From positions 1-61,519 of the IMG/VR virus record IMGVR_UViG_3300042862_000334: DNA of 61,519 bases; one strand, given 5' to 3'. Origin of the DNA: a virus (lineage: Duplodnaviria; Caudoviricetes). Positions 5,932 through 61,519 of the stretch are shown one piece after another. Each line of letters starts with the position of its first letter. Position 1 is the first letter of the stretch. The notes under the pieces are model-generated. The model saw only the letters and a list, made by a program, of their open reading frames with translations. It searched no databases and was not told the origin of the DNA. The position numbers were made by a program, and so were the translations under genes.

Positions 5932-5983
5932 AAAGAGGTTTGTTTCAAACAAAAGAAAAAAGATTAATAAAATTATTAAATTT

Positions 5984-6013
5984 AAGGTGGGAGGTAAAAT
6001 TTCCACCTTTTTT
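5984..6013 (+). terminator. Rho-independent terminator after the giant gene
   Basis: AAGGTGGGA/TTCCACCTT stem followed by a T-run. Confidence 0.75.
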
Positions 6014-6063
6014 ATTTGTGTATGTTAATTATTTTTTGTATTATTGCACAATAAATTTTAAAA

Positions 6064-16748: not shown

Positions 16749-16916
16749 TCATAACGGTAAATTTATTTTATGTTTTTGTATTGTTAATACTCTATAAGGG
16801 TCTTTACAACTAGTTTCTTTTAAATACTGAGATAGAGTTTGTACATAAACCTTAATTGTGTTTTGAGAGTAATTCTTATATCTCAATTTATTTTCAAAAA
16901 TTTCGAGAACTTTCAT
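16749..16916 (-). pseudogene. Internally deleted copy of the tyrosine recombinase (55 aa)
   Basis: Translates MKVLEIFENKLRYKNYSQNTIKVYVQTLSQYLKETSCKDPYRVLTIQKHKINLPL*. The first ~43 aa match the N-terminus and KINLPL matches the C-terminal KINLPI of 40833-41630. Confidence 0.85.
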
Positions 16917-16922
16917 CTGCTA

Positions 16923-16972
16923 AGTATTGATTTTATTAGTATTTTATTATAGTTGAGTATATATAATAGTTA
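16923..16972 (+). other. attI-like site of cassette array 1
   Basis: AGTATTGATTTTATT...TAGTTGAGTATATATAATAGTTA is shared with 41637-41686; identity stops right after the GTTA of the first cassette. Confidence 0.75.
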
Positions 16973-16981
16973 GCACCAATA

Positions 16982-17626
16982 CTACGAAACTGCACAACCG
17001 AGAACATATTGTCCTACATTTGGGTCAACGCAATTACGAATTATTTGGTCTTTTCTGTGTTTCATTTTATATTCTCGTAAATCAAAATAACCTTTTTCAG
17101 AACTTCCTCTTTGGTTGTGAGTTAATCCGTCTTTAATTTCAGTTTGTGGTATTTCAAAGTTTGCCCAAAATAAGTGTCTACCAAGTTTTGCAGTTGGTTT
17201 TACAAATGGTTCGTAATAAGGCTTTACATTTTCAACTACAAACTTTATATCTGTGTTCTTTGTAAAGTTCTGTAAAAAGGTTATTTCAGCCCACAATCTC
17301 ATATCAGGCATTACAGCATCGTAACTTCCGCTTTTACTTGCCATCATTCTTACTTTGCTATGGCTTTGGCAAGGTGGAGAACTCCATATAAAATCAAACT
17401 CTCTCCAATTTTTAGCCAAATAATCGTGTGCATCAGTAACTATTACATTATCGTTTGGGTGTAATTGCTTGTAAACATTTGCAATTTCTTCGTTGTATTC
17501 TATTGCAGTTACTTCTACATTTTCCCAATGTTTGCGGTTTCCTCCAATTCCAGCGTATAGGTTTAAAACCCGTACTGGTGCTAACATCGGTTTGGCAAAA
17601 TTGCCGTTTTCGTTTTCTTTTGACAT
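16982..17626 (-). CDS. C5-cytosine DNA methyltransferase (short form), cassette cargo
   Basis: Motif I VLNLYAGIGG, motif IV SPPCQSHS, motif VI VENV; start codon lies inside the attC-like site. Confidence 0.8.
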   Translation of the reverse strand: MSKENENGNFAKPMLAPVRVLNLYAGIGGNRKHWENVEVTAIEYNEEIANVYKQLHPNDNVIVTDAHDYLAKNWREFDFIWSSPPCQSHSKVRMMASKSGSYDAVMPDMRLWAEITFLQNFTKNTDIKFVVENVKPYYEPFVKPTAKLGRHLFWANFEIPQTEIKDGLTHNQRGSSEKGYFDLREYKMKHRKDQIIRNCVDPNVGQYVLGCAVS

Positions 17627-17696
17627 TTTATCTTAATTTAAACATTTGTAATTCTAATGAAGTTTTGTGTTCGGCAACTTCGCCAAGCCGTAGGCG

Positions 17697-17939
17697 TTAG
17701 GCAACATTTAAAGAAGCCCACCAAATATTAAACTTCTCCATAGCAATCTTTTCTGCATTTTTTCCACCGACACAATCTTCATAGTGATAAGGTGATTTAG
17801 TTTCTCCATCAGCGTGTCTTAATCCGCTTCTAATGCAGAAAAAACCAGCACCATCTGTAATTTCAAACCAATCTATCATTGTCATTCCAATCCCGAATTT
17901 AAATTCAGGTCGAAGTTTTAATATCTGTTTTTTAGTCAT
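17697..17939 (-). CDS. Hypothetical cassette protein
   Basis: Fills cassette 2; its TAA stop is the TTA of the GTTA core. Confidence 0.65.
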   Translation of the reverse strand: MTKKQILKLRPEFKFGIGMTMIDWFEITDGAGFFCIRSGLRHADGETKSPYHYEDCVGGKNAEKIAMEKFNIWWASLNVA

Positions 17940-18080
17940 AATAAACGTTGCCTAACAAAGTGTATAAGCAATAGCCGTTAGGCGTTTCAAACTATTGCAG
18001 TTGTTAATATTTAATTTTCTACATCTAATCAAGTTCTGTGTTCGGCTACTGCTCATACACTCGACCGTTATGTGTAATTG

Positions 18081-18893
18081 CTACCATTCCGTTCCAAATA
18101 AAGATTGCGCTTGTAAATCTTTTTCTTTTCTTTTTTCTTCCAACGCTTTTTTAATTCGTTCTTCAATCAAATTACAGTATTCATTTGATATTTCACTTCC
18201 AATCCAATTACGGTTGTTTAAAATACTCATTTTTGCAACTGTTCCGCTTCCCATAAAACAATCATAAACCAAATCACCTTCATTGCTCCAACTTAAAATG
18301 TGGTCATTTGCAAGTGCTTCTGGAAATACAGCAGGGTGTTCGCCTTTTTGTGGGGCTATATACCAATAGTTGTTTCTTCTGCTAAATTCCGCACTTGGTT
18401 TTCTACTCTCTATTTTATGTTCGCCAGTTACTAATCTTCTTCCTACTCCGCTTTTATCTTTGCCAAAAGAAGCATTTGGTTTGTCATAAATTAGATTTGT
18501 AGTATTTATTTTTCCTTTTGAAAACACGAACATATACTCAAAGTTTTGTGTATAGCATTTATTACTCCCTACTGCACCTCCACCATCTTTTATCCAAATC
18601 ATTGTGTCGTGTAAGTTGAATCCAATTTCTTTGAAATATAGTGCTTGTTTAAATGATGTTCCGCTTTCGTTTCCTTGAACAGTTGCATCCGAAATAACCC
18701 AAACTAATACCCCACCATCTTTGGTAATTCTAAACAACTCCTTTGCAATATCTTCAAAAGGGAAAGAATATCCATTGTAAGTTCTTAGTCCATCATAAGG
18801 TGGGCTTGTTACCGTTAAATCCACAAAGCAATCAGGCATCTTTGCCATTGTTTCTAAATTGCTTTCATTGTAATTCTTGTTTATATCAATCAT
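18081..18893 (-). CDS. N4-C/N6-A DNA methyltransferase (beta class), cassette cargo
   Basis: TSPPY precedes HPAVFP and DCFMGSGT; likely start is MIDINK at 18893. Confidence 0.85.
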   Translation of the reverse strand: MIDINKNYNESNLETMAKMPDCFVDLTVTSPPYDGLRTYNGYSFPFEDIAKELFRITKDGGVLVWVISDATVQGNESGTSFKQALYFKEIGFNLHDTMIWIKDGGGAVGSNKCYTQNFEYMFVFSKGKINTTNLIYDKPNASFGKDKSGVGRRLVTGEHKIESRKPSAEFSRRNNYWYIAPQKGEHPAVFPEALANDHILSWSNEGDLVYDCFMGSGTVAKMSILNNRNWIGSEISNEYCNLIEERIKKALEEKRKEKDLQAQSLFGTEW

Positions 18894-19086
18894 ATTTTTA
18901 AATTTTTCAAATTTATTTTTGCCATCGCTCAAAAAAGAAAAGAAAAAGTATTCCGTTTCAAATTGAACTTTCTGCTATTAAACCGCAACTACACATAACA
19001 AGGTATTTGCAAAATTGCCCACCAACATTTGTGCTTAATTTGAAGTATCTGCAAGGGCAACTTCGCAAATACCCAACCGTTATCAC

Positions 19087-19386
19087 TCAGCTTGGCGAGT
19101 CGGTTAAAAGAGATAACATTGCATCATATCCAAAAACCTGCTTTGTTGCTTCTTTTGTATCGTTTTCATCTGATTTTAGATTTAATGAATAGGAACTTCC
19201 GTAACAGGAAACCTTTTTATTTTCAGCATCTACTATACAAAATCCCGCAGAAACAGGATTTAAGTTTCTCATACTTGAATGCTCTACGAAACAAGGAAAT
19301 ATTATAATTCCGTTGTATTCTTTAATCTTAACATATTTTTGTTCTGTATTCATATTTAGTGGAATAAAAAGCCGAAGTGATAACAA
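19087..19386 (-). CDS. Hypothetical cassette protein
   Basis: Fills cassette 4; PVSAGF...GSSYSLNLKS pattern; start uncertain. Confidence 0.6.
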   Translation of the reverse strand: MLSLRLFIPLNMNTEQKYVKIKEYNGIIIFPCFVEHSSMRNLNPVSAGFCIVDAENKKVSCYGSSYSLNLKSDENDTKEATKQVFGYDAMLSLLTDSPS

Positions 19387-19523
19387 ATGATATAAAAGAT
19401 TTTCGGCTTGGTTTATAAATTTAATTTTTGGGTTTGTACTTTTTAATTTTGGTCTTAAACTGAAAGGTTCGGGATTTATCCTGCCGAAAAACCTCTCATA
19501 TCATCGACCGTTATAAGAAATAG

Positions 19524-19863
19524 CTACTTTACGTTTTCAATCAAATCTATTTCAACTCGATGTTTAGTATGTGAGTGATAAGAATAATTAGTCAATACTT
19601 GCGTTTCTGTTTTATAACCTAAACGGCTATCTTTTACCTTTTCAATTAATTCTTTTTCAAATTCATTTTCGGCGTGCAAAACTATCTTTGCTTTACCTTG
19701 CCATATTACTACCTCTGTTTTCATAATTCTATTTTGTTTATTTAGTTACTAATGTTGTTGCAAACCACATAAAGAATAATCTTGTATAGTTCTTACCGTT
19801 TACTTTATAAGTTGGAAATTTCTTAAAGCCCATCCATTGTGTGTGAAATTCTATTTTCATCAT
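19524..19863 (-). CDS. Two small cassette ORFs (19524-19724, 66 aa; 19738-19863, 41 aa)
   Basis: Both lie inside cassette 5; the second (MMKIEFHTQW...) was translated by hand. Confidence 0.5.
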
Positions 19864-19961
19864 ATTTAGTTTAAATTATCCGCTACTTCTTATAACAGCA
19901 ACTACAACTCACCAGCCGAAACTACTCACTGCATAGGCTGGCGTGATGTAGTTGCAAAACG

Positions 19962-20120
19962 TTAGAGCCGTTTAAGGGTGTTTACATTTACCGCAAAGAA
20001 TATTGCATTTACAACGATGTTGAGTATTCCGCTTGCAATTTTACCATCTACCAAAAAGTAAACACCCATACAAAATAGGATTACCTGAACAATCATTAGT
20101 GCTATTATGAACTTTCTCAT
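19962..20120 (-). CDS. 52-aa two-TM membrane peptide in the partial 6th cassette
   Basis: MRKFIIALMIVQVILFCMGVYFLVDGKIASGILNIVVNAIFFAVNVNTLKRL*; its stop is the TTA of the GTTA core. Confidence 0.55.
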   Translation of the reverse strand: MRKFIIALMIVQVILFCMGVYFLVDGKIASGILNIVVNAIFFAVNVNTLKRL

Positions 20121-32366: not shown

Positions 32367-33515
32367 TTAAAAAGGAGGTGTAGTATCTCCATCACCAAAA
32401 ACTGAACTTAACTGGTCAAAACTAATTGGTGGTACAATCTCAGAAACTGTTTTTTCAAACACTGGAGTAGTGTTGAATGTTGGCGTTTGGAATGGTGTGG
32501 CTGTTTGTTTGGGCTCAATAGACTGTTTCATTTTTTCTATCTGTTCTGATGTTAAATCCATCTTTTTTACGAAAAGGTCTCGCCATGGGGAATCTGATTC
32601 CCTTACTTTTGTTACAAAATAAAATAAATTTGAAATTGTATTAAATGAAATTCTTCCGTTTTTATCTTCTTCCCCGAAAAATTCATCTAAATAATCATAC
32701 CTTTCTTTTGAAACTTTTAAATATTGTGTCACAGATTGTTTGAAAGGGTTTGTGATTATTATTATATAAGATGCTAACTGCTCCATAAAACTGCTACCAA
32801 AAATCCAAGAATTGTTAGGCATCATATCATTAGATTTCTCTTTTATATTACCACTGTGAATCCTATTAATTTGCGAAAGTAACAAGAAATATACGTTGTT
32901 GAACTCTAACTTCAGTAAATTTATAAATTCGCTTATTTTTTCTAAAACAGCTTGTTTATCAGAGCCTACGAACAATAAAATGTGGTCCGCTGATAATATT
33001 ATGCTATCAGCATCTTTGTGCTTAATACAAAAATCTCTTGTCATCTTATAAAAATCCTCTGGAGTAACAGGTGACTGAACTACAAACCTTCTGTTATCTT
33101 GTAAACTCTCATAATACTTTTTTACTTTTTCAGATTCCTCTTCATTAAATTCTTCAAATAATATTTTTGATTTCTTTTTACCAAGTAAGTTATGTGTTGT
33201 ACGTAGAAGTTTATTTAACATCTTCATCTCCATAGAAAACTCAAGACTGACAAAATTTTCAGCATTTGGGTTTACTTCTTTACTCATAATTTTTTCTATC
33301 ATTCTGTAAAGTGTCTCAGATTTACCTGAGGATGGAGCTCCAGCTATTAAAACACAATCACCTGGTAATAAGGTTCCTAAATGACAATCTAGCATTTCTT
33401 CCCCTGTGCGGAGTAATAGTTTTGTACCTTTTTGCAATTTTGCCATTTCAGCAAACGCCTCTGTAGCAACTACACCTACTTGTTGAATTCTACTATCTAA
33501 TTGTATTTCACTCAT
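32367..33515 (-). CDS. DnaB-like (SF4) replicative helicase
   Basis: Walker A GAPSSGKS, FSMEM, ADH, LLSQINR; acidic/PF C-terminal tail. Confidence 0.85.
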   Translation of the reverse strand: MSEIQLDSRIQQVGVVATEAFAEMAKLQKGTKLLLRTGEEMLDCHLGTLLPGDCVLIAGAPSSGKSETLYRMIEKIMSKEVNPNAENFVSLEFSMEMKMLNKLLRTTHNLLGKKKSKILFEEFNEEESEKVKKYYESLQDNRRFVVQSPVTPEDFYKMTRDFCIKHKDADSIILSADHILLFVGSDKQAVLEKISEFINLLKLEFNNVYFLLLSQINRIHSGNIKEKSNDMMPNNSWIFGSSFMEQLASYIIIITNPFKQSVTQYLKVSKERYDYLDEFFGEEDKNGRISFNTISNLFYFVTKVRESDSPWRDLFVKKMDLTSEQIEKMKQSIEPKQTATPFQTPTFNTTPVFEKTVSEIVPPISFDQLSSVFGDGDTTPPF

Positions 33516-38246: not shown

Positions 38247-38966
38247 TTATTTAAATACTTTGTTATAAATAGCCCAGTATTCTGCAATCTTTTTAGCTGT
38301 TTCATCTACTTTCTTTAAAAATTTTTCCGCCCGCTCTCTTGAATATGGTGTATCAATATATTCAATATCTCCAGTTAGCCTTAAAACATTTTTATTGCCA
38401 GACTCAAGCGTATTCCCCTTCCTATCAAATAATATTACTTTTGAACTGTTTATTTCAAAACCCTCTTCTTCTAAAGCATAACAATACATTGTAGTTTGAT
38501 TATAATCTTCTGATGCATATTCTTTAGCTTTTTTCTCTATTGACCCTGTTTTAAAATCTATAACATCTGCTTTTTTATTTTTTACGCCGAAAATTCTGTC
38601 TACAAAACCGTACAAAATGTAAGAACCCCTGTCGATTAAAACCTCTCTCTCATATTCAGCTAAAGCATTACCTGGAATCTCTTTATCTAATACTTCCATA
38701 TCAAACTGAGAAAGATAAGGTTGCTCTAATCCTGTTTCTTGGTATGTACCCACAGAGCTACCAAACTCTGTGAAAATTGAACCTTCACTTGGAATACCTA
38801 AAAACTTATTAGCTAACCATTCTCCTCTATAACCCTCTTCATTAAAAGCTGTATAAGTAGAATAAGACATTGCTGGTCTACCAATGTATTTTTTATATCT
38901 TTCTGGTACAGGATTATTTGGACGTTCTTTATAAATACTTGGTAGTATTAGTTGTTTATTTGCCAT
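38247..38966 (-). CDS. PD-(D/E)xK RecB/Cas4-like exonuclease
   Basis: SYS, YERE, GFVDRI, IDFKTG, QTTMY. Confidence 0.8.
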   Translation of the reverse strand: MANKQLILPSIYKERPNNPVPERYKKYIGRPAMSYSTYTAFNEEGYRGEWLANKFLGIPSEGSIFTEFGSSVGTYQETGLEQPYLSQFDMEVLDKEIPGNALAEYEREVLIDRGSYILYGFVDRIFGVKNKKADVIDFKTGSIEKKAKEYASEDYNQTTMYCYALEEEGFEINSSKVILFDRKGNTLESGNKNVLRLTGDIEYIDTPYSRERAEKFLKKVDETAKKIAEYWAIYNKVFK

Positions 38967-39936
38967 TTACTAGTTGTTTAATTTCTAATTTTTTCTGTTC
39001 TTTTACTTCTGGTTTGTCCGAGGAAAACATGGTATTGTTAACATAAAGACTTGTTAAGATATCTTCTACAATTTCTTTATCTTTTTTAGTTAATTTAGAT
39101 TTACTTAACTTCTGTTCTATTTTTTCTTTTGTCGCCGAATCAATAGAAACAGCTTTATAGATGCGTTGTAATAGCGGTACCTCTTCTACGAAAGTTTCAT
39201 TTGAATTATTTTCTGTTTTATCTATAACTTTTCTAATAAAACCTTTTCTGCCTTGCAAGGCGCAAAACAATTCAGCAACAGCTTTAACATCTTTCTTGCA
39301 GTATTCTGAAATTCTACTAATGCCGTCTTTCTCTTCATAATAAACTCTTGAAACATCTGCTCCAGAAATATCGTCTTTAGGTGTATCAATACCTGCCAAC
39401 ATACACATTGAATCTAAAGATAAGTTGTAGTAATAAGTACCTTTTGTAATATCCATAGTGTCCATAAAGTTGTCCGCCAATACCCATGGTTTTTGTTGAC
39501 TATCACTATGTTTGTCTGAAAGAATAGATAAATCAACACCACTTTCAAATGCTTTTAAGCGAATTGTTGGCATATCAAATTGAATAATATTATGACCGCA
39601 AGGAATAAAACCTGTTGAGTTTAACATTGTGTAGAACTGCTCTATAATGTCTTTCTGTTCGCCTAAAAGAGATTTTAAAAATAGATTATTATCTTTAATA
39701 AAACCTACAGTTATACAAACTATTTTATTAAATGCTGGGTCTAAAGCACCGTTTAGTTTGTAATGCTCTAAGACTTCATTTGCTGGTGGTAGTTTTGATG
39801 TTTCTTTATCTCTTAACTTCCAAGCATATAAATCATATTCTTTTGAATTAATGTCTAATACATCGTTTCTACGTGTAGTTTCTATGTCTAGAAATAATAG
39901 TTTTTCTAAATCTTGTTTTCTTACTCTGTTATTCAT
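38956..39936 (-). CDS. DEDDy 3'-5' exonuclease (PolB-exo2-like)
   Basis: FLDIET, GHNIIQFD, MDTM, YCKKDV. Confidence 0.8.
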   Translation of the reverse strand: MNNRVRKQDLEKLLFLDIETTRRNDVLDINSKEYDLYAWKLRDKETSKLPPANEVLEHYKLNGALDPAFNKIVCITVGFIKDNNLFLKSLLGEQKDIIEQFYTMLNSTGFIPCGHNIIQFDMPTIRLKAFESGVDLSILSDKHSDSQQKPWVLADNFMDTMDITKGTYYYNLSLDSMCMLAGIDTPKDDISGADVSRVYYEEKDGISRISEYCKKDVKAVAELFCALQGRKGFIRKVIDKTENNSNETFVEEVPLLQRIYKAVSIDSATKEKIEQKLSKSKLTKKDKEIVEDILTSLYVNNTMFSSDKPEVKEQKKLEIKQLVNGK

Positions 39937-40832: not shown

Positions 40833-41630
40833 TTAAATAGGCAAATTTATTTTACCTAAAGTTTTATTTGAAACGTGACAATAAATCTGAGTTGTTCTAA
40901 TGTTCTGATGTCCAGCTAATTGTCTTATTATTTGCAAATCTGTTCCTGATTCTAAAAGTGTTGTAAAACTACTATGACGTAGCAAGTGAAAATGATAGTC
41001 CTTACCTATATATTTTTTAACTATCTCGTTACAACTTCTGTGAGAATATTGCAGACCAAACTGCCCGTTAAACAAGAACTCTTTCGGTGTATACTCCTTA
41101 AAATATTCGCGTAAAAGATTTAAAACAACAGAAGATAAAGGTACAAACCTGTCCTTTCTTCCTTTACCGTTTTTAATTAAAATCAACATCCTTTTAGAAT
41201 CAATATCTTCTAATTTTAAATTACAAACTTCACTAACTCGCATCCCTGTAGAGAAAGCTAAAGTGATTATTGCTTTGTGCTTCAAATTCTCAATTTTTGA
41301 AATCTTATCTAACAAAAAATCTTTATCAATTACTCTTGGTAGTTTCTTTTCAGTTTTTGGTCTTTCTATTTTGTTTAGATGAACATCTTTTTTATTTAAA
41401 ATATATCGCGCAAAAAGCTTCAAACAACCAATAAACTGATTTTGTTGAGCAACAGATGAAAATTCCCTACTTTCAAGAAAACAAACAATGTCTTTAGTTG
41501 AAACTTTGTATGGGTCTTTACAATTTATTTCTTTTAGATATTGAAAAAGTACTTGTTTATAAACCTTAATTGTGTTTTGAGAATAGTTTTTATATCTCAA
41601 TTTATTTTCAAAAATTTCGAGAACTTTCAT
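40833..41630 (-). CDS. Tyrosine recombinase (XerD/IntI-related, no IntI-specific insertion)
   Basis: N-terminal YSQNTIKVY SAM-like domain; catalytic set GMRVSE, GKGRKDR, HLLRH, AGH, TTQIY. Start MKVLEIF is supported by the truncated paralogue. Confidence 0.92.
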   Translation of the reverse strand: MKVLEIFENKLRYKNYSQNTIKVYKQVLFQYLKEINCKDPYKVSTKDIVCFLESREFSSVAQQNQFIGCLKLFARYILNKKDVHLNKIERPKTEKKLPRVIDKDFLLDKISKIENLKHKAIITLAFSTGMRVSEVCNLKLEDIDSKRMLILIKNGKGRKDRFVPLSSVVLNLLREYFKEYTPKEFLFNGQFGLQYSHRSCNEIVKKYIGKDYHFHLLRHSSFTTLLESGTDLQIIRQLAGHQNIRTTQIYCHVSNKTLGKINLPI

Positions 41631-41636
41631 AGTTTG

Positions 41637-41686
41637 AGTATTGATTTTATTGATGTTTTTTATTAGTTGAGTATATATAATAGTTA
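41637..41686 (+). other. attI-like site of cassette array 2
   Basis: GTTGAGT (41666) and GTTATAAG (41683) are 17 bp apart with no hairpin; the core is identical to array 1. Confidence 0.75.
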
Positions 41687-41696
41687 TAAGCAAGTG

Positions 41697-42446
41697 CTAC
41701 ATTTCGTTTTCAAATAGAGATTGTGCTTGTAAATCTTTTTCTTTTCTTTTTTCTTCCCACGCTTTTTTAATACGTTCTTCTGAAATCTTGAAATAGTTTT
41801 CATCAAGTTCAACACCAATGTATTGTCTGTTTGATAATAAACTTGCAATACAAGTCGCACCCACACCCATAAAAGGTTCAAAAACTATTTCGTTTTCTTT
41901 TGATGAATTTTCAATTAGAATTTTCATCAACTCAACAGGCTTTTCTGTGTCGTGTAAATTTTTACCATCATCGTCTTTTGTTTTTTTATTTGGTATAGAA
42001 AGTATATCAGCAGTTCCACAATTATTTATTTTTACACCTGCACCTTTTCTAAAAAATAAGATATACTCAAATTGCGACATATAGTATTGACCCATTATCT
42101 TGTTTCCTTTATCCCATATAATTGACTTTATGAAGTGAAACCCTATATCAGTCAAAACATTAAGATATTCTTGCAGGTTTTTATGATTAGTCATTATATA
42201 GCAATGACCTGTTTCTTTTAGAACTTGATATAATTTTTCTCCCCATATTTTTACGTGAGTATCATTTTTTTCAAATACTTTACCTTTTTTATTAATATCT
42301 TTTTGCAACATTCCACCGCTATTTCCAGCACAACCTCTTGCAGTTGTTGGATATGGTGGGTCTGTTACAATTAAATCAACCTTATACTCCTTAGCAATCA
42401 TTCTATCTATTATTGCTATTGCATTATCATTAAATATTTTGTTCAT
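41697..42446 (-). CDS. N6-A/N4-C DNA methyltransferase (beta class), first cassette
   Basis: TDPPY, HDTEKP, EPFMGVG. Confidence 0.85.
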   Translation of the reverse strand: MNKIFNDNAIAIIDRMIAKEYKVDLIVTDPPYPTTARGCAGNSGGMLQKDINKKGKVFEKNDTHVKIWGEKLYQVLKETGHCYIMTNHKNLQEYLNVLTDIGFHFIKSIIWDKGNKIMGQYYMSQFEYILFFRKGAGVKINNCGTADILSIPNKKTKDDDGKNLHDTEKPVELMKILIENSSKENEIVFEPFMGVGATCIASLLSNRQYIGVELDENYFKISEERIKKAWEEKRKEKDLQAQSLFENEM

Positions 42447-42753
42447 TTTTCTTTATTTTTAAATTTTTATTTTCCCCGCACAAAAAAGAAAAGAAAAAGG
42501 TTTCGTCTTTCAAATCAAGTTCTGTGCTATAAAACCGCACCAGCTTATAACAGCGTGTATATGCAAGTGGTGGTTCTGTGGTTTATTCAACATTTGTTTT
42601 CTTATCAAACTTTCTACTGTATTGAAAGGTAAGTGCTTCTAATCACCACCTGACATATACACGCAAAACGTTATAAGTAACTTTAACCGAAGCTGTCCAA
42701 AAGATAATTCTGCTAAAAAGCTGTATAAATTTCTTTCTGCTTCGGAAAAGCTA

Positions 42754-43019
42754 CTATTTTTCTATAAAGTATGTATTTTTAAAAACTATATATGCTTTTC
42801 TATTCATAATAATTGTCTTTTCTCCGTACTTTTTACCCAACCATTCCACTATAAAAAATGGTAGTATTTTATAAATATTTCGTATCATAATTAAAAAGAT
42901 AAATCTTTGTTACTATTTTCTAAATCCTCTTTCAAACTTTCTAAAACTAACTCAATAATTTCAGATGGAATTTCTTCCCCATTTAAAAATTTTTCTTTAT
43001 AATCTTTTAAATATCCCAT
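42754..43019 (-). CDS. Two ~44-aa ORFs in cassette 2
   Basis: MGYLKDYKEKFLNGEEIPSEII... and MIRNIYKILPFFIVEWLGKKYGEK..., translated by hand; ends approximate. Confidence 0.45.
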
Positions 43020-43222
43020 AATAAAAGCTACTTATAACAGTGGTTTTGCTCAATGGCTATTTCAGGCAAAATTTATACACTGTTTTGTGTTTGTAAAATT
43101 TGTTTTTAATTCAATAATTTAGGATTGCTTTTCAGCCACTAAGCAAAGCCACGAAACGTTATAAGTAACCCTACGGGTCGCTATCGCTTACTTATAACAC
43201 GGGCTAAAACAAAATAAATTTG

Positions 43223-43435
43223 CTATCGTCCGTGCAAATATTCATCGTGGCGGTTTTCATAATCCACTTTTTTACTTTCGGTTTGTTTTGCTTCTTCAGT
43301 TTCTAATTCATAGCAGTATGAATGAAAGTTTGCGTTTCTAAATGTCATTGGAGATTCTGCATTAAAAGCAAAACCAGCATCGTAGTCGTGGATTTCTATT
43401 TTCTCTTTACAAACTTTACATTTCATAATCCGCAA
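43223..43435 (-). CDS. ~70-aa Cys/His protein nested in an attC-like loop
   Basis: CKVC...FHSYC; lies between hairpin arms 43200-43223 and 43432-43455. Confidence 0.6.
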   Translation of the reverse strand: MRIMKCKVCKEKIEIHDYDAGFAFNAESPMTFRNANFHSYCYELETEEAKQTESKKVDYENRHDEYLHGR

Positions 43436-43473
43436 ATTTTACTTCGTTTAGCCCGAAACCGTTAGCGGTAATA

Positions 43474-43710
43474 CTATGACAGTGCTTCAAATCTAATTCT
43501 GTGGTTATAAAAATCGCCATCTCCTCCAGCGTGTACAGCATATTTTTGACCATCGCCATTTTCAACTTCTGCATAAGTTCCATCTTCTAATGTAATTTGT
43601 GCTTCATCATCAAATCTTGCATAGAAATGTTTATTTTCATTTAAAAAAAATGCCATAGTATCGCTATTTGTTGGCATTGGCTCTATTGTTGAGAATCTAT
43701 AATCTTCCAT
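43474..43710 (-). CDS. Hypothetical cassette protein
   Basis: Fills cassette 4. Confidence 0.65.
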   Translation of the reverse strand: MEDYRFSTIEPMPTNSDTMAFFLNENKHFYARFDDEAQITLEDGTYAEVENGDGQKYAVHAGGDGDFYNHRIRFEALS

Positions 43711-43884
43711 TTTGTATGTTTTAAATTATTAATAATAAGTACTACCGCTAACAAGGGTTTTATGAAATTGGGGCTTCGGTGCTTAATTTTGGCTTTTGGT
43801 ATTCTATTGAACTTTGGTGCTTTATTCAACATTCGGTTTTCAAAAACCCCAACTTCATAAAGCCCCGAGACGTTATAAGCCATT

Positions 43885-44256
43885 TTAGGACGACACACCG
43901 TTAATAGAAAGTAAATTTTCCCAACCACAAGAAACATCATAACCTAAATCATCGGCTTGGTTTACAGTCAATGCTTTTAATTCAATTGTTTCAGTTGGTT
44001 CTTTTGGCATTTCTTTATAATCCCACCATTCCGAACCATCATACTCGCCTCTTTCAAGCCACCAATTTTCGCCAACCACTAATAAATCTTGTGCAACTTT
44101 AGATGAACCAAATCCACTTTCATAATCAACATCAGCAGTTTTTTTGAAATCTTCCCAAGTTGTTTTATGAGTTGAAGTTCCTACCCATTTTACATCAGTT
44201 TCTTTTTTGTTATTACTCTCTAATAATTCAAGAGTTTCTTTTAATAAATTGCTCAT
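43885..44256 (-). CDS. Conserved phage hypothetical cassette protein
   Basis: DYESGFG...WWLERGEYDGSEWW pattern. Confidence 0.65.
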   Translation of the reverse strand: MSNLLKETLELLESNNKKETDVKWVGTSTHKTTWEDFKKTADVDYESGFGSSKVAQDLLVVGENWWLERGEYDGSEWWDYKEMPKEPTETIELKALTVNQADDLGYDVSCGWENLLSINGVSS

Positions 44257-44391
44257 TGTTTTTTAATTATATTGTTACGCCAAACACGAATAAAAACGGC
44301 TTATAACAGTGGTTTGGCAAAATACCGCCACAAGCCTTTGTACTATAATTCAACATTTGTGCAAGGCGGTACTTCGCCAAGCCACCAAACG

Positions 44392-45051
44392 TTACAGGCA
44401 AGTGTTAGCACCCTGCACATCAACGACAGACTGCGGGATATTACGTTCCTGTTTACGTTCTTTCATTTGCCAATCGTAATCCAATAAATAGTTATGGCTG
44501 TTACCAATCAAATCATATTTGTCTTTACTAATTGACACTTTTAAAAAGGCTCTCATTCCACCTTTGGTAATTGGTGCAACTTTATGAATGTTAAATTGAT
44601 TAAGTCTTATAAGTTGATTTTCTTTGTAAGCAACATCATTAAATGGCATCGCTTGTTTTTCCATTTCTTCCATTGAAAGCAAATCGTCTAATGGCAAATC
44701 AAAATCTGTTTTATTAAAAATGGTTGGGTATTTGTCGCACCACACATAGTTAATATCATTAGTCAAAAAACCATCGCTATGCCATCCTGTTCTATTAAAA
44801 GAACAATTAGGCATTTGATAAAGAAATTTTGCAGTCAAATACACGTATGAATTTACATAATTATCCAAGCCAAATTCGCCAATAAAATCACAACATATTG
44901 CACCAATCAATTTATCAAAGCATTTTAATCGTGGCTCATAAATCGGTTGTGTTTCATTTGGCATTTTAATAGGTAAATATTGGTAGAACATCATTTCTTT
45001 ACATTCTACTTCAAATATTCCTAATTCCGTTGGTAGTTCACCGTATTTCAT
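44392..45051 (-). CDS. Putative 2OG-Fe(II) dioxygenase-like cassette protein
   Basis: GWHSDG (HxD), distal NIH, then RAFLKV. Confidence 0.5.
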   Translation of the reverse strand: MKYGELPTELGIFEVECKEMMFYQYLPIKMPNETQPIYEPRLKCFDKLIGAICCDFIGEFGLDNYVNSYVYLTAKFLYQMPNCSFNRTGWHSDGFLTNDINYVWCDKYPTIFNKTDFDLPLDDLLSMEEMEKQAMPFNDVAYKENQLIRLNQFNIHKVAPITKGGMRAFLKVSISKDKYDLIGNSHNYLLDYDWQMKERKQERNIPQSVVDVQGANTCL

Positions 45052-45353
45052 ATTGCATTGATTTTAACAGTTTCAAAAGTGTTTTCAAAAACGTAAAGGC
45101 ACAATTCCTGCATTATAAATAGTTTGCAAGTTCCCATATAATTAAGCCTTTCAAGTGGCGTTTTTATTGGTTGCCCTGTTTTATAAAATTCTAAACACCT
45201 TTTTTCTTTTGGGTGTTCTTCATCTGTTTCAACTATTGCCCACAGAAAAAACAATCCATCTACATCTTCAATGCGGATTATTTGAGCATCTTTTGGAAGT
45301 TCTATTGTGTACTTCTCTTTTGTTGGTATTGAGTATTTATATATTGCTTTCAT
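45048..45353 (-). CDS. Hypothetical protein, same cassette as the dioxygenase-like gene
   Basis: IYKY...LWAIV...TG...YMGT pattern; overlaps the next gene by 4 nt. Confidence 0.6.
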   Translation of the reverse strand: MKAIYKYSIPTKEKYTIELPKDAQIIRIEDVDGLFFLWAIVETDEEHPKEKRCLEFYKTGQPIKTPLERLNYMGTCKLFIMQELCLYVFENTFETVKINAI

Positions 45354-45523
45354 TACGAAAAATTTTAAAGATTAACCCACACCTGCCTGTAACATCGGTT
45401 TGCCAAAAGCTGGGCAGACGTAGTAAATTCAGCTTTTGTTCCTTTAATCGGCTTTAGTGCAAGGGGTGATCAGTTGTGCTTCTAATCCCAGCCTTCGGCA
45501 AGCCGTAGCCGTTAGCATCAATG

Positions 45524-45739
45524 CTACAATTTGTTTTCAAAAGATATTTTAGGCTCTTTTGGAATTGGAATTTTCATAACGTGGGTTGGCACTTTTCTGC
45601 CACAAAAACCGTAATTAAAAGAAAAAGTATTTTTTAAAAACTTTGCTTTTTTAACTTTGTTGTCCATAAAAATATAACAATCAAAATCAGTTTCTTTTTC
45701 AAAATCGAATTTATCTATTTCAATCCATCTGCAATTCAT
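45524..45739 (-). CDS. DUF551-like cassette protein
   Basis: WIEI...PTHVMKIPIP. Confidence 0.5.
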   Translation of the reverse strand: MNCRWIEIDKFDFEKETDFDCYIFMDNKVKKAKFLKNTFSFNYGFCGRKVPTHVMKIPIPKEPKISFENKL

Positions 45740-45907
45740 AGTATTTCAGTTTTAAGAACCGCACTAATGCTAACACATGTTTGTGTCAATAGCTACGGCA
45801 GTTATTAATTTAATGTTTTGCGTTTTCTTTTATGTTCAGTCTTAAACCGAAACGATAGTGTGTGTCAGAACGCTACTGAACACAAGCACTCGGAAGTTAT
45901 GTGAGAT

Positions 45908-46081
45908 TTACTCGTCAGAAGTATCAAAATTAAAATCATCTTCTTCTTCTACTATAACTTCTCCTTTATATGAAAAAGAAACAGAAGGAGAACCACAACA
46001 ACCACAACCACCTACTGACATTTGTATATCATTAGCCTTTAAAATTTCTTTTACTTTTTTAATTCTTTCTTCTATTCCCAT
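45908..46081 (-). CDS. 57-aa cassette protein with GGCGCCGSP motif
   Basis: MGIEERIKKVKEILKANDIQMSVGGCGCCGSPSVSFSYKGEVIVEEEDDFNFDTSDE*, translated by hand. Confidence 0.6.
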   Translation of the reverse strand: MGIEERIKKVKEILKANDIQMSVGGCGCCGSPSVSFSYKGEVIVEEEDDFNFDTSDE

Positions 46082-46229
46082 TTTGTTTTAATTTAAAAAC
46101 CTCACATAACAGCATATTACCGCTATGGCTTGGCTTTGGTTAATCCGAAATGTGTCGGCTCACTTTTTGTTTGTTGTTTATTTGTTGTCGTTTGTGTTCA
46201 AATACGCCACATAGTTAATATGCATAACG

Positions 46230-46481
46230 TTATAAGCAAGGTGGCTTTGGAAGTTCCATCCACCAAGTTTCATCTACATTACAATACTTTACCATTGAAG
46301 TTTCGTGTATAGAAATTGCCAAACTTTCTTGGCTATCATTCATTATTCTATAAATCAAAACTTTGTTACCGTTTTGTTCTACTGATGGCAATTTCTCCGA
46401 AGCCGCCACCCAGCTTATAACAGCACCTATATTCAATTGCGGTTTTTGTGGTTCATTCAACTTTTGTTCTTCTATTTTCAT
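46230..46481 (-). CDS. DUF551-like cassette protein starting inside the attC loop
   Basis: WVAASEKLP...WWMELPKPP; likely start is MKIEEQ at 46481. Confidence 0.6.
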   Translation of the reverse strand: MKIEEQKLNEPQKPQLNIGAVISWVAASEKLPSVEQNGNKVLIYRIMNDSQESLAISIHETSMVKYCNVDETWWMELPKPPCL

Positions 46482-46550
46482 TTGTTCTAAATTTAAAGTT
46501 TTCGTTTTTAAAGTCCGCAACTAAATATAGCTGCATCACGTTGGCAGTAA

Positions 46551-46820
46551 TTATTTGAAGAACTCGCTAAATTCAACAAGCCTTAATCCTTCTGCTTTTT
46601 GATATTCGGAACTTCCAGTACTACCAGTTGAAAAAAAACTTTCATAGTCTGCGTAAACTACTACTGCTGTTTCCGTTGTTGCCATTTGTGGTACAAAATC
46701 TAAATATAAATTTTCAGCACCTAAAAAATCTTTTACTTTATCAAACTCTTTTTTATCTCTAATAATAATTGATAATCCTTTGTAATCCATCACGTTTAGT
46801 ATTATAACTACTGCTAACAA
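46551..46820 (-). CDS. Hypothetical protein of the last cassette
   Basis: Fills cassette 10; start uncertain (46790 or 46820). Confidence 0.55.
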   Translation of the reverse strand: MLAVVIILNVMDYKGLSIIIRDKKEFDKVKDFLGAENLYLDFVPQMATTETAVVVYADYESFFSTGSTGSSEYQKAEGLRLVEFSEFFK

Positions 46821-46880
46821 CGGCTATACAATAGTTGGGTTAATTGTTTAATTTAAAGTCTGTTTTGTTTCATATCTTAT

Positions 46881-47039
46881 TTATTTTTTAAGTTTTTCTA
46901 ATTCAGCTTTATAAGCTTCGATAAGCTTGCCATTTTTTATAATTATATCAGATGCTAAACTTGGATATTGACTAATTGTACGTTTAACGTCATTTTTTAA
47001 ATACTCAATTAATATAACTATTTCTTCACATCTTTCCAT
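46881..47039 (-). CDS. 52-aa paralogue of 36564-36722
   Basis: Clear nucleotide and protein similarity. Confidence 0.6.
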   Translation of the reverse strand: MERCEEIVILIEYLKNDVKRTISQYPSLASDIIIKNGKLIEAYKAELEKLKK

Positions 47040-61253: not shown

Positions 61254-61519
61254 CTAAATTTTATTTTCGTTATACCATTTAACAAACGATATACAAGCGT
61301 TATAAACTGCCTTTATTTTAGTATCTCTATTTAATTCGACAATAAATTCAATGTTTTCATGGTCGTATATTCTTACATTATATTGGTTTATTTGAAAATC
61401 AAAACGTGTGTTTTCTATACTTTCAATCTTTTCAACTACTTCCATTAACCAATTCCAATCTGAATGAAACTTTAAATCCCCTAATCGGAATGCTCTTTCA
61501 AATTTCGGAAAATAGTAAT
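61254..61519 (-). CDS. 5'-partial paralogue of 56815-57177
   Basis: Frame is open to the window edge: ...FHSDWNWLMEVVEKIES...KWYNENKI. Confidence 0.65.
   Translation of the reverse strand, partial: YYFPKFERAFRLGDLKFHSDWNWLMEVVEKIESIENTRFDFQINQYNVRIYDHENIEFIVELNRDTKIKAVYNACISFVKWYNENKI

Follow-up and report, generated by a model that had tools for sequence, protein, structure and literature searches.

Can a phage carry a gene-shuffling device of its own that works like an integron? This question is raised by a region of the IMG/VR virus record IMGVR_UViG_3300042862_000334 (61.5 kb; hereafter the window, by which we mean the whole stretch of DNA analysed), in which the gene of a tyrosine recombinase (40833-41630, minus strand) adjoins an attI-like site and a row of ten small gene cassettes reaching to position 46840. 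A preliminary description, made from the sequence alone, had proposed an integron-like system with its recombinase, attI-like site and cassettes. Our analysis of sequence data makes it very probable that the region is a recombinase-driven, phage-encoded integron-like cassette platform. Its sites are a family conserved in structure and variable in sequence, its cassettes are self-contained units, found in different arrays, whose gain or loss takes place exactly at AA|C (G|TT on the opposite strand), and the attI-like site by the recombinase start is a conserved array end.

An intact recombinase and cassettes with complementary ends

The recombinase gene is an intact open reading frame (ORF) of 265 aa from its ATG, and the catalytic residues, read from the sequence and the alignment, are all present (R131, K159, H215, R218, H241 and Y250). 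In Pfam the protein matched Phage_integrase (1.1e-35) together with the N-terminal SAM-like domain SAM_4. Among the NCBIfam models XerA_Arch, XerC and XerD ranked best and the integron-integrase models next, with every score under its cut-off. The Xer equivalog level was not reached (XerA_Arch 179.9 with a cut-off of 220, XerC 161 with 335 and XerD 152 with 330), nor was that of the two integron-integrase models (140.5 and 94.7 bits, with cut-offs of 265 and 435). Judged by these scores, the enzyme is a Xer-like protein that appears to form its own clade. An integron-integrase model aligned to it in two stretches, and the alignment with Vibrio IntI4 (2a3v) was split as well (residues 12-177 with 14-181, and 208-258 with 260-310). 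The I2 segment specific to IntI is missing, as had been noticed earlier, for 30 residues (178-207) stand in place of the 78 of IntI4 (182-259). The alignment with archaeal XerA-type structures was unbroken.

The attI-like site of this array (array 1) occupies 41631-41685 on the minus strand and consists of AAC and then the core TATTATATAT, about 52 nt ahead of the recombinase ATG. It forms no hairpin, and its GTT at 41683-41685 is the hairpin-free GTT that the preliminary description had placed beside the recombinase. The GTT positions of array 1 are 41683, 42670, 43158, 43461, 43872, 44391, 45511, 45896, 46229 and 46540. A second array of five cassettes (array 2, 16970-19963, minus strand) was discovered by a window-wide scan for pairs of the form GTT-X/X'-AAC.

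The two ends of a cassette, X after its GTT and X' before its AAC, are complementary, as had been claimed before. Across both arrays, 14 of the 15 units show 8-11 Watson-Crick pairs of 12, and the fifteenth, whose computed AAC coordinate is one base off, was read by eye as 10/12. The window mean, computed with one unit mis-set, is 9.7/12 within the same unit against 4.6/12 between different units. It had also been said that X differs between units, which holds for five variable nucleotides; X is not wholly free, since the pattern GTTA-5 variable nt-AGT is fixed. Only position 11 repeatedly fails to pair: in 13 of the 15 window units it is a G.T wobble on the coding (minus) strand, and it matches an invariant T eight bases before AAC in the relatives treated below. 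X and X' differ between the two homologous N6/N4 methylase cassettes of the window, and in each the changes compensate each other.

A family of folded sites

Read on the minus strand, a site is made up of AAC, a 5-nt spacer, a stem of about 20 bp with fixed irregularities (the L stem), a loop of 20-90 nt, the returning stem, 1-2 nt and GTT. A hand-written stem scanner proved too loose for such sites (297 matches against about 160 in shuffled sequences) and was replaced by a covariance model, R1. It was limited to the six equal-length sites of array 1 because in a MAFFT alignment of all 13 the short sites had their 5' arms misplaced. R1 recovered all seven held-out sites of the window (E 2.9e-13 to 1.2e-7, all on the minus strand). 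With filters off, a search of the whole 61.5 kb gave nothing else at E<0.1 save weak opposite-strand echoes, and the next match that was not an echo had an E of 0.16. The 14 sites counted in the preliminary description correspond to nine in array 1 and five in array 2, the latter lying beyond the region then described. Its proviso that the sites might be the ends of an insertion sequence or a miniature inverted-repeat transposable element was considered and rejected, as the 61.5 kb contain copies in the two arrays only and the site sequences differ among themselves. Rfam holds no family for the sites at the gathering score.

For a wider view, the best 80 of 99 recombinase relatives in IMG/VR (50-70% identity) were taken. 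R1 gave 339 matches at E<=0.01 in these 80 loci, and at E<=0.001 it gave 285 matches in 49 of 74 distinct loci (the 80 minus six repeats of the same stretch: L007, L053, L054, L061, L078 and L081), every one on the recombinase strand. The sites cluster beside relatives of the recombinase. In an alignment of 107 sites of the relatives, itself fitted to the R1 model, 96.2% of the pair cells were paired, against 61.2% after shuffling and 33-46% with the partners slid. Changes on both sides were seen in 761 cells against 232 in shuffles, 18 of the 20 L-stem pairs showed compensatory change, and one G.U/G.T wobble was retained in 104 of 106 sites. The stability of the fold, which is not fitted to the model, serves as an independent check and agrees with the covariation: of 251 distinct sites, 218 have a more stable fold on the coding strand than on the complementary one, as do 10 of the 14 window sites. 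The covariance-model search suggested earlier has thus returned one structural family with strong covariation. A loop motif seen by eye in several window loops was not general, the best 7-mer occurring in 45 of 251 loops, and no promoter is claimed from it.

The pairing of cassette ends could be measured in the relatives too. AAC and GTT stood at the expected columns in 262 of the 285 sites, and with the other 23 dropped there were 211 cassettes between consecutive sites, at 49 loci. The X of a cassette (12 nt past GTT) paired with its own X' (12 nt before the next AAC) at 8.78/12 with a mode of 11, against 4.92/12 for X and X' of different cassettes and 5.02/12 for the two flanks of one site. 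Such pairing of X and X' across a gene, over distances of up to 2 kb, would be expected of a circular intermediate closed at that point.

Breakpoints at a single trinucleotide

By nucleotide BLAST, only 4 of 223 cassettes had a homologue elsewhere, which indicates a very high diversity and makes comparison of array order impossible beyond these few. All three homologous pairs inspected start at the AAC of the upstream site, two of the three end at the next AAC, and their flanks are unrelated. The methyltransferase cassette at 18069-19081 of array 2 is 89% identical to positions 5032-6043 of locus L075, with the homology bounded by both AACs, and the pair from L024 and L046 shows the same AAC-to-AAC limits. 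In L004 and L047 the upstream site and the first part of the gene are 100% identical from AAC onward. These limits imply that a cassette on the coding strand is a site followed by a gene, with the crossover within AAC (G|TT on the plus strand), as the preliminary description had placed it.

Parts of the region are held by 24 lake-water metagenome runs, and contigs of four of these were compared with the window. In run X3 one joint (41682->43158) leads from the attI directly to cassette 3, skipping cassettes 1 and 2, and another (43459->46228) skips five cassettes and sets cassette 9 directly after site s3. In run X4 the whole of cassette 6 is skipped (44389->45510). All three joints are at G|TT. 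Loose contig ends at 45510 (X3 and X13, with other cassettes joined there), 41686 (X4) and 43199 (X2) show that different sequences are attached at these same junctions.

Cultured phages also show whole-cassette polymorphism. GenBank holds ten isolates of Polaribacter phage Freya, whose integrase is 38% identical to the window recombinase, and we compared Freya_1, 5, 8 and 10 (loci L083 and L166-L171). Their flanks are 100% identical, and the isolates are distinguished by what follows one AAC about 50 nt ahead of the integrase, which ranges from 0 to 12 ORFs. In Freya_1 the site is empty and this AAC runs straight into the conserved stretch preceding the integrase, and Freya_10 has an insert of 4.9 kb with 12 ORFs exactly after the same AAC. 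Freya_8 equals Freya_10 minus exactly one cassette, and in Freya_5 the whole stretch between an internal AAC and the last AAC is missing. The Freya cassettes carry the same wobble at position 11. The partners at these junctions share only about 4 nt, which argues for site-specific cutting and not for homologous exchange. In the accessible text of the paper on these phages, the integrase is taken as a sign of temperate life and cassettes are unmentioned (Bartlau et al., PMC8776804). The nine breakpoints inspected all fall at one trinucleotide with no more than 4-5 nt of shared sequence; homologous cassettes, lake contigs and Freya isolates together show gain, loss and replacement of cassettes exactly at G|TT, which is what the preliminary description had advised looking for in related genomes.

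The attI-like end of the arrays

In 56 of 61 distinct upstream regions of the relatives, AAC and a conserved 10-nt attI core lie 39-57 nt ahead of the ATG. Conservation sets in at (T)AAC, ahead of which the sequence varies. As in integrons, an attI adjoins the integrase gene and serves as the point of insertion, and it is seen empty in Freya_1 and filled in Freya_10. The sites are found upstream of the recombinase in 269 of 285 cases, and the other 16, which lie downstream in five loci, are probably second arrays like that of the window. Where at least 2 kb of upstream sequence was available, a site lay within 2 kb in 38 of 51 loci, and the median site-to-site spacing is 289 nt. A third attI candidate of the window near 61301, from a loose regular expression, had no recombinase remnant or site beside it and was treated as a chance match.

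Related sites in Bacteroidota chromosomes and in phage P12002L

In GTDB, with one genome per species, relatives at 52% identity or more were encoded by only four contigs, all from metagenome-assembled genomes (MAGs), three of which bear phage-style arrays. Many Bacteroidota chromosomes encode recombinases of the same length that are about 40% identical. R1 found 56 sites in 19 of 80 GTDB loci fetched. At 16 loci with these approximately 40%-identical enzymes, here I2-less as well, the sites lie past the 3' end of the gene and on the opposite strand, in convergent arrangement (L147, L093, L150, L128 and 12 others). Hosts of the chromosomal arrays include Oceanihabitans sediminis, Croceivirga radicis, Aquimarina longa, Arenibacter, Salegentibacter, and Crocinitomicaceae and Prolixibacteraceae MAGs. 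The chromosomal cassettes show the X/X' signature, mostly at 8-11/12, and the closing X'-AAC of the last cassette was located in two of four loci examined (L147 and L093), where it abuts the recombinase stop. The R1 matches and the cassette signature together indicate that the same site family is present in chromosomes, with the recombinase inverted. One strong site was also seen at a locus of a Leptospira MAG (L096).

In Polaribacter phage P12002L (30003-40954), R1 matched at 39117-39250 (6e-9), 32792-32930 (5e-7) and 38874-38941 (1e-4), and more weakly between the methyltransferase genes. These sites are related but degenerate, they flank four DNA-modification genes, and their X/X' pairing is weak (4-9/12). 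The accessible text of Qi et al. 2023 reports CALINs, that is, attC clusters without an integrase, in virulent phages including P12002L, where they flank DNA methyltransferase genes, and describes how IntI1 recombined one P12002L site into attI1 at G|TT (PMC9892861). The degenerate array that we see is probably this CALIN.

The cassettes of the window and their cargo

The cassettes of array 1, all on the minus strand, are described from the recombinase outwards. Cassette 1 (41684-42670) carries an N6/N4 DNA methyltransferase (41697-42446; Pfam N6_N4_Mtase, 1.5e-35) and site s1 (42549-42672; R1 E 1.1e-29, a training site), with X/X' pairing of 10/12. Cassette 2 (42671-43158) has two small ORFs of 44 and 42 aa with s2 at 43036-43160 (11/12). 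Cassette 3 (43159-43461) combines an empty X/X' unit of 41 nt (43158-43198) with s3 (43196-43463), the loop of which contains a 67-aa ORF (43223-43426). On account of its long loop, s3 was neither used for R1 nor recovered by it, and was recognised by eye and by folding. In run X2 contigs are piled up very deeply over the empty unit and s3 (about 260 at 43173-43183), as if this stretch were common to many genomes. Cassette 4 (43462-43872) has a 78-aa ORF and s4 (43750-43874; 11/12), and cassette 5 (43873-44391) a 123-aa ORF (PHROG 3972, function unknown) and s5 (44305-44393; 11/12), a held-out match of R1 with an E of 2.2e-12.

Cassette 6 (44392-45511) encodes a 219-aa protein (PHROG 1843) and a 101-aa DUF7352 protein, with s6 at 45391-45513 (11/12). 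Cassette 7 (45512-45896) has a 71-aa ORF and s7 (45772-45898; 9/12), which is the weakest hairpin and a held-out match with an E of 1.2e-7. Cassette 8 (45897-46229) has a 57-aa ORF and s8 (46108-46231; 10/12), and cassette 9 (46230-46540) an 83-aa ORF with a weak match to DUF551 and s9 (46419-46542; 10/12). Cassette 10 (46541-46840), with a 79-aa ORF (PHROG 37600), forms the distal end of the array. There (46816-46840) its X'-AAC (AAC at 46816-46818) is followed by a 12-nt near-copy of the attI core, which replaces the hairpin, and then by GTT-GTT. The ten units of the preliminary description are therefore present, and the imperfect hairpin said to follow each of them follows nine, the tenth being followed by the attI-like core. 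This core may be left over from an event between two attI sites or at a secondary site.

Just beyond array 1, a 52-aa ORF (46881-47039) lies between direct repeats of about 18 nt. It is missing from contigs of X2 and X13 (joint 46888->47034), a repeat-mediated loss of a different kind. The TAAC at cassette ends includes a TAA stop on the coding strand, and at least four cassette ORFs terminate there (for example 44392-45051, 46230-46481 and 17697-17939).

Array 2 starts from a second, intact attI-like core and a remnant of the recombinase N-terminus (16782-16971, minus strand; 45 aa, 84% identity, E 1.8e-19). Its sites are at 17583-17698, 17954-18069, 18997-19081, 19382-19512 and 19894-19963, all on the minus strand and all held-out matches of R1 (E 2.9e-13 to 1.1e-7), with X/X' pairing of 8-11/12. 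The five cassettes hold, by Pfam, a C5-methyltransferase fragment, an 80-aa ORF, an N6/N4 methyltransferase, a 99-aa ORF, and ORFs of 66 and 41 aa. The attI of array 2 is an orphan, on which the intact enzyme, at a distance of 24 kb, presumably acts in trans. A 52-aa ORF (19962-20120) adjoins its distal end and terminates in a TAAC stop. A contig of X4 has a joint at 40853->41605 that omits 751 nt of the recombinase gene; this is probably the array-2 paralog mapped on array 1, or else a recombinase deletion like the array-2 remnant.

The cargo of the window thus comprises two N6/N4 DNA methyltransferases, a C5-methylase fragment, a DUF7352 protein and small proteins whose PHROG match is either "unknown" or absent. 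A scan of 150 of the 159 distinct cassette ORFs of relatives that reach 49 aa gave six DNA methyltransferases; Tad6 (a Thoeris inhibitor), ART-PolyVal, an RNA ligase, YopX and GNAT were among the matches seen once, and about nine tenths of the scanned ORFs had no Pfam match. The methyltransferases of the window and the Tad6 of a relative bear out the anti-restriction and accessory cargo supposed in the preliminary description, and we infer that the cassettes may constitute a tradable stock of anti-defence and accessory genes. The genes of the window cassettes also point to the recombinase, as had been stated, the longest ORF is on the site strand in 200 of the 211 cassettes of relatives, and the site inherited together with a gene is the upstream one. 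The order of integron cassettes, in which the ORF precedes the attC and is read outward from a promoter at the integrase end, is not found here.

The surroundings are those of a phage genome with an estimated completeness of 43%, and nearly all genes are on the minus strand. The window carries a replication module (DNA polymerase, DnaB-like helicase and exonucleases) and one large virion protein, and a tRNA search found no tRNA. A Megablast search of the array region against GenBank phages gave no close relative, only a single chance-like match of 129 bp. The assignment to a Bacteroidota phage is suggested by the relatives and not by a host link of the window contig itself.

Proposed mechanism and alternative explanations

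How might such a platform work? On the coding strand a cassette would read C, folded site, GTT-X, gene or genes, X'-AA. In the circular cassette, X' and X would close a long R stem (TAAC/GTTA, five variable base pairs and an A-G.T-T box) that would run across the asymmetric spacer of 5 nt and 1 nt into the imperfect L stem with its variable loop. The adjacent Xer-like recombinase would bind the coding strand in its folded form, a strand equivalent in polarity to the "bottom" strand of integrons (5'-...AA|C-spacer-L stem...-GTT...-3'), and would cut between A and C. One strand would then be exchanged with attI or with another folded site, and replication would resolve the junction, as it does in integrons and in CTX-phage integration by XerCD. 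New cassettes would enter beside the recombinase gene and be read by the leftward transcription of the phage itself. We lean towards this single-strand route because the partners share no overlap sequence, because the fold and not the sequence is conserved, and because one strand folds better than the other. The cassette shuffling postulated in the preliminary description is supported by the site family, the breakpoints, the attI and the whole-cassette polymorphism, and catalysis by the recombinase is the probable explanation on these sequence comparisons.

Several points weigh against this interpretation. The I2 helix is held to be essential for attC recognition, at least in the accessible parts of two sources (PMC8138268, PMC7790495), and the platform recombinase does without it. 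Of the 51 relatives for which 2 kb or more of upstream sequence is available, 13 lack a site within 2 kb, and array 1 departs from the simple model at its distal end, where an attI-like core stands in place of the expected hairpin. P12002L has related sites and no recombinase relative at E<=1e-20, so a host enzyme or another enzyme could act on them. The conserved wobbles would suit an RNA structure equally well. As to the lake data, the short side measures only 25 letters in two of the three cassette joints, a length that can mislead, and the runs were seen as contigs, which cannot reveal circles or rare forms.

The strongest alternative retains the platform and its recombinase, and supposes that the sites act as double strands in the two-exchange manner of Xer or Cre, as in dif modules, with the hairpins serving otherwise. 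The enzyme is indeed Xer-like and without I2, Xer enzymes normally act on duplex DNA, and the attI is here an ordinary duplex site. However, the partners share only about TAAC(G) at the crossover, so an overlap of 6-8 bp would be heterologous, and the conservation of structure without sequence, the strand bias of the fold and the retained wobbles all speak for a folded strand. XerCD itself uses a folded single strand in the case of CTX phage, according to the accessible parts of two accounts (PMC3442271; PMC7790495), and the dif layout (two 11-bp arms around a 6-8 bp spacer, 28 bp in all) was not evident by eye in the conserved parts of the sites. We regard the duplex route as unlikely.

Still less probable is that the recombinase is a lysogeny integrase and that the arrays are CALIN-like relics from Bacteroidota chromosomes, moved, if at all, by host enzymes. 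The integrases of Freya, Leef and Ingeline were read as temperate signs by Bartlau et al. in the accessible text (PMC8776804), and Bacteroidota chromosomes do carry the same site family beside recombinases of about 40% identity. Against this, the array always abuts the recombinase start through the conserved attI, Freya isolates of identical backbone differ only at the array, and the second, orphan attI of the window bears an array as well. Moreover, the window has its replication module and, among the nine large ORFs scanned, no other lysogeny gene. A dual role of the recombinase, as lysogeny integrase and in cassette exchange, is possible.

In T4-type phages, promoter-stem-loop (PeSL) cassettes have been proposed to be swapped at these elements. 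A comparable reading here, with hairpins that are mainly RNA or regulatory elements between early genes, such as terminators, processing sites or promoters, swapping by illegitimate or short-homology recombination and an unrelated recombinase, would agree with a folding strand that is the mRNA strand, with conserved G.T pairs that would be G.U in RNA, with sites in every intergenic gap of the arrays and with the P12002L sites that have no recombinase, yet it is the least probable of the three, since cassette-specific X/X' pairing across genes of up to 2 kb fits a circle and not an mRNA, the breakpoints fall at one trinucleotide, the attI core keeps its distance from the recombinase start with nearly all sites just upstream of it, and Rfam gave no match.

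Relation to known systems

The folded-cassette platform resembles integrons in many respects. A recombinase of the Xer/IntI branch stands beside a hairpin-free attI, and the cassettes are mostly single-gene and highly diverse. Each site is built of an R stem with the AAC/GTT core, an unpaired spacer and an imperfect L stem capped by a variable loop. Crossover falls at G|TT, and folding, covariation and breakpoints agree with the definition of attC as an imperfect palindrome kept in structure. The two R arms of a given cassette are complementary, it is the structure and not the sequence that is conserved, and one strand is favoured. Unlike integrons, the platform has a recombinase without I2, genes on the folding ("bottom"-equivalent) strand with the site upstream of the gene, and no outward promoter logic of the Pc type. 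Its spacer is asymmetric (5 nt against 1-2 nt), its R stem of about 13-15 bp has a fixed G.T wobble, and its hosts are phages and Bacteroidota. It works like an integron and is not a canonical one, for it lacks both I2 and the ORF-then-attC polarity. IntegronFinder surveys, as given in the accessible text, list almost no integrons in Bacteroidota, with one complete integron in Bacteroidetes proper in IntegronFinder 2 (PMC9024848), and the single-strand chemistry of integrons is tied to the I2 helix of IntI in the part of the review available (PMC7790495).

The closest precedent found in the literature is the CALINs in phages (Qi et al. 2023, PMC9892861). They share the attC-like sites at methyltransferase genes, and R1 matches P12002L in just those intergenic gaps; the accessible text reports no dedicated recombinase, attI or large family. 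CTX phage and the integrative mobile elements exploiting Xer (IMEX), which use XerCD at dif, provide a parallel of another kind, with an I2-less Xer enzyme, exchange of one strand pair between hairpin and duplex, and replicative resolution, as far as the accessible parts of the sources describe them (PMC3442271; PMC7790495). In CTX, however, host XerCD acts on a dif mimic to integrate a whole phage, whereas the platform has a phage-encoded enzyme and gene cassettes in arrays. In the literature searched, which left subscription journals outside, no dedicated I2-less recombinase with attI and cassette arrays was described in phages or Flavobacteriia. The dif modules of Acinetobacter plasmids and the PeSL cassettes of T4-type phages are small gene modules bounded by short recombination or stem-loop elements that are conserved in sequence. 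They have the modular shuffling of accessory genes in common with the platform, which in contrast conserves only a few bases and a fold and has a dedicated recombinase and attI attached.

Significance

Integrons are the textbook device of gene capture and shuffling, and the platform seems to run the same logic on phage genomes with an I2-less Xer-like enzyme and inverted gene polarity. An enzyme of this type doing the work of an integron makes the origin of integrons directly testable, as the platform would be either a second solution or an ancestor. It raises the questions of whether a plain Xer-like enzyme can exchange one strand and what substitutes for the reading of extrahelical bases. 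The cultured Freya isolates are a ready experimental system for these questions. The site model and the attI core also give a handle for mining thousands of cassettes of unknown function, which are probably enriched in counter-defence proteins.

For phage biology, the platform offers a mechanism for the turnover of small early and anti-defence genes in lytic-looking phages, in hyperplastic regions. We would tentatively go further, while holding the following view for somewhat less than an even chance: the platform may represent a separate I2-less integron-like branch, widespread in phages and chromosomes of Bacteroidota, in which a plain Xer-like enzyme recombines folded single-strand cassettes. 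Such a branch might be the long-sought stage before I2, possibly a viral one, in the evolution of integrons, or else a case in which the device was invented anew, and might sustain a network through which phages exchange anti-defence genes with one another.

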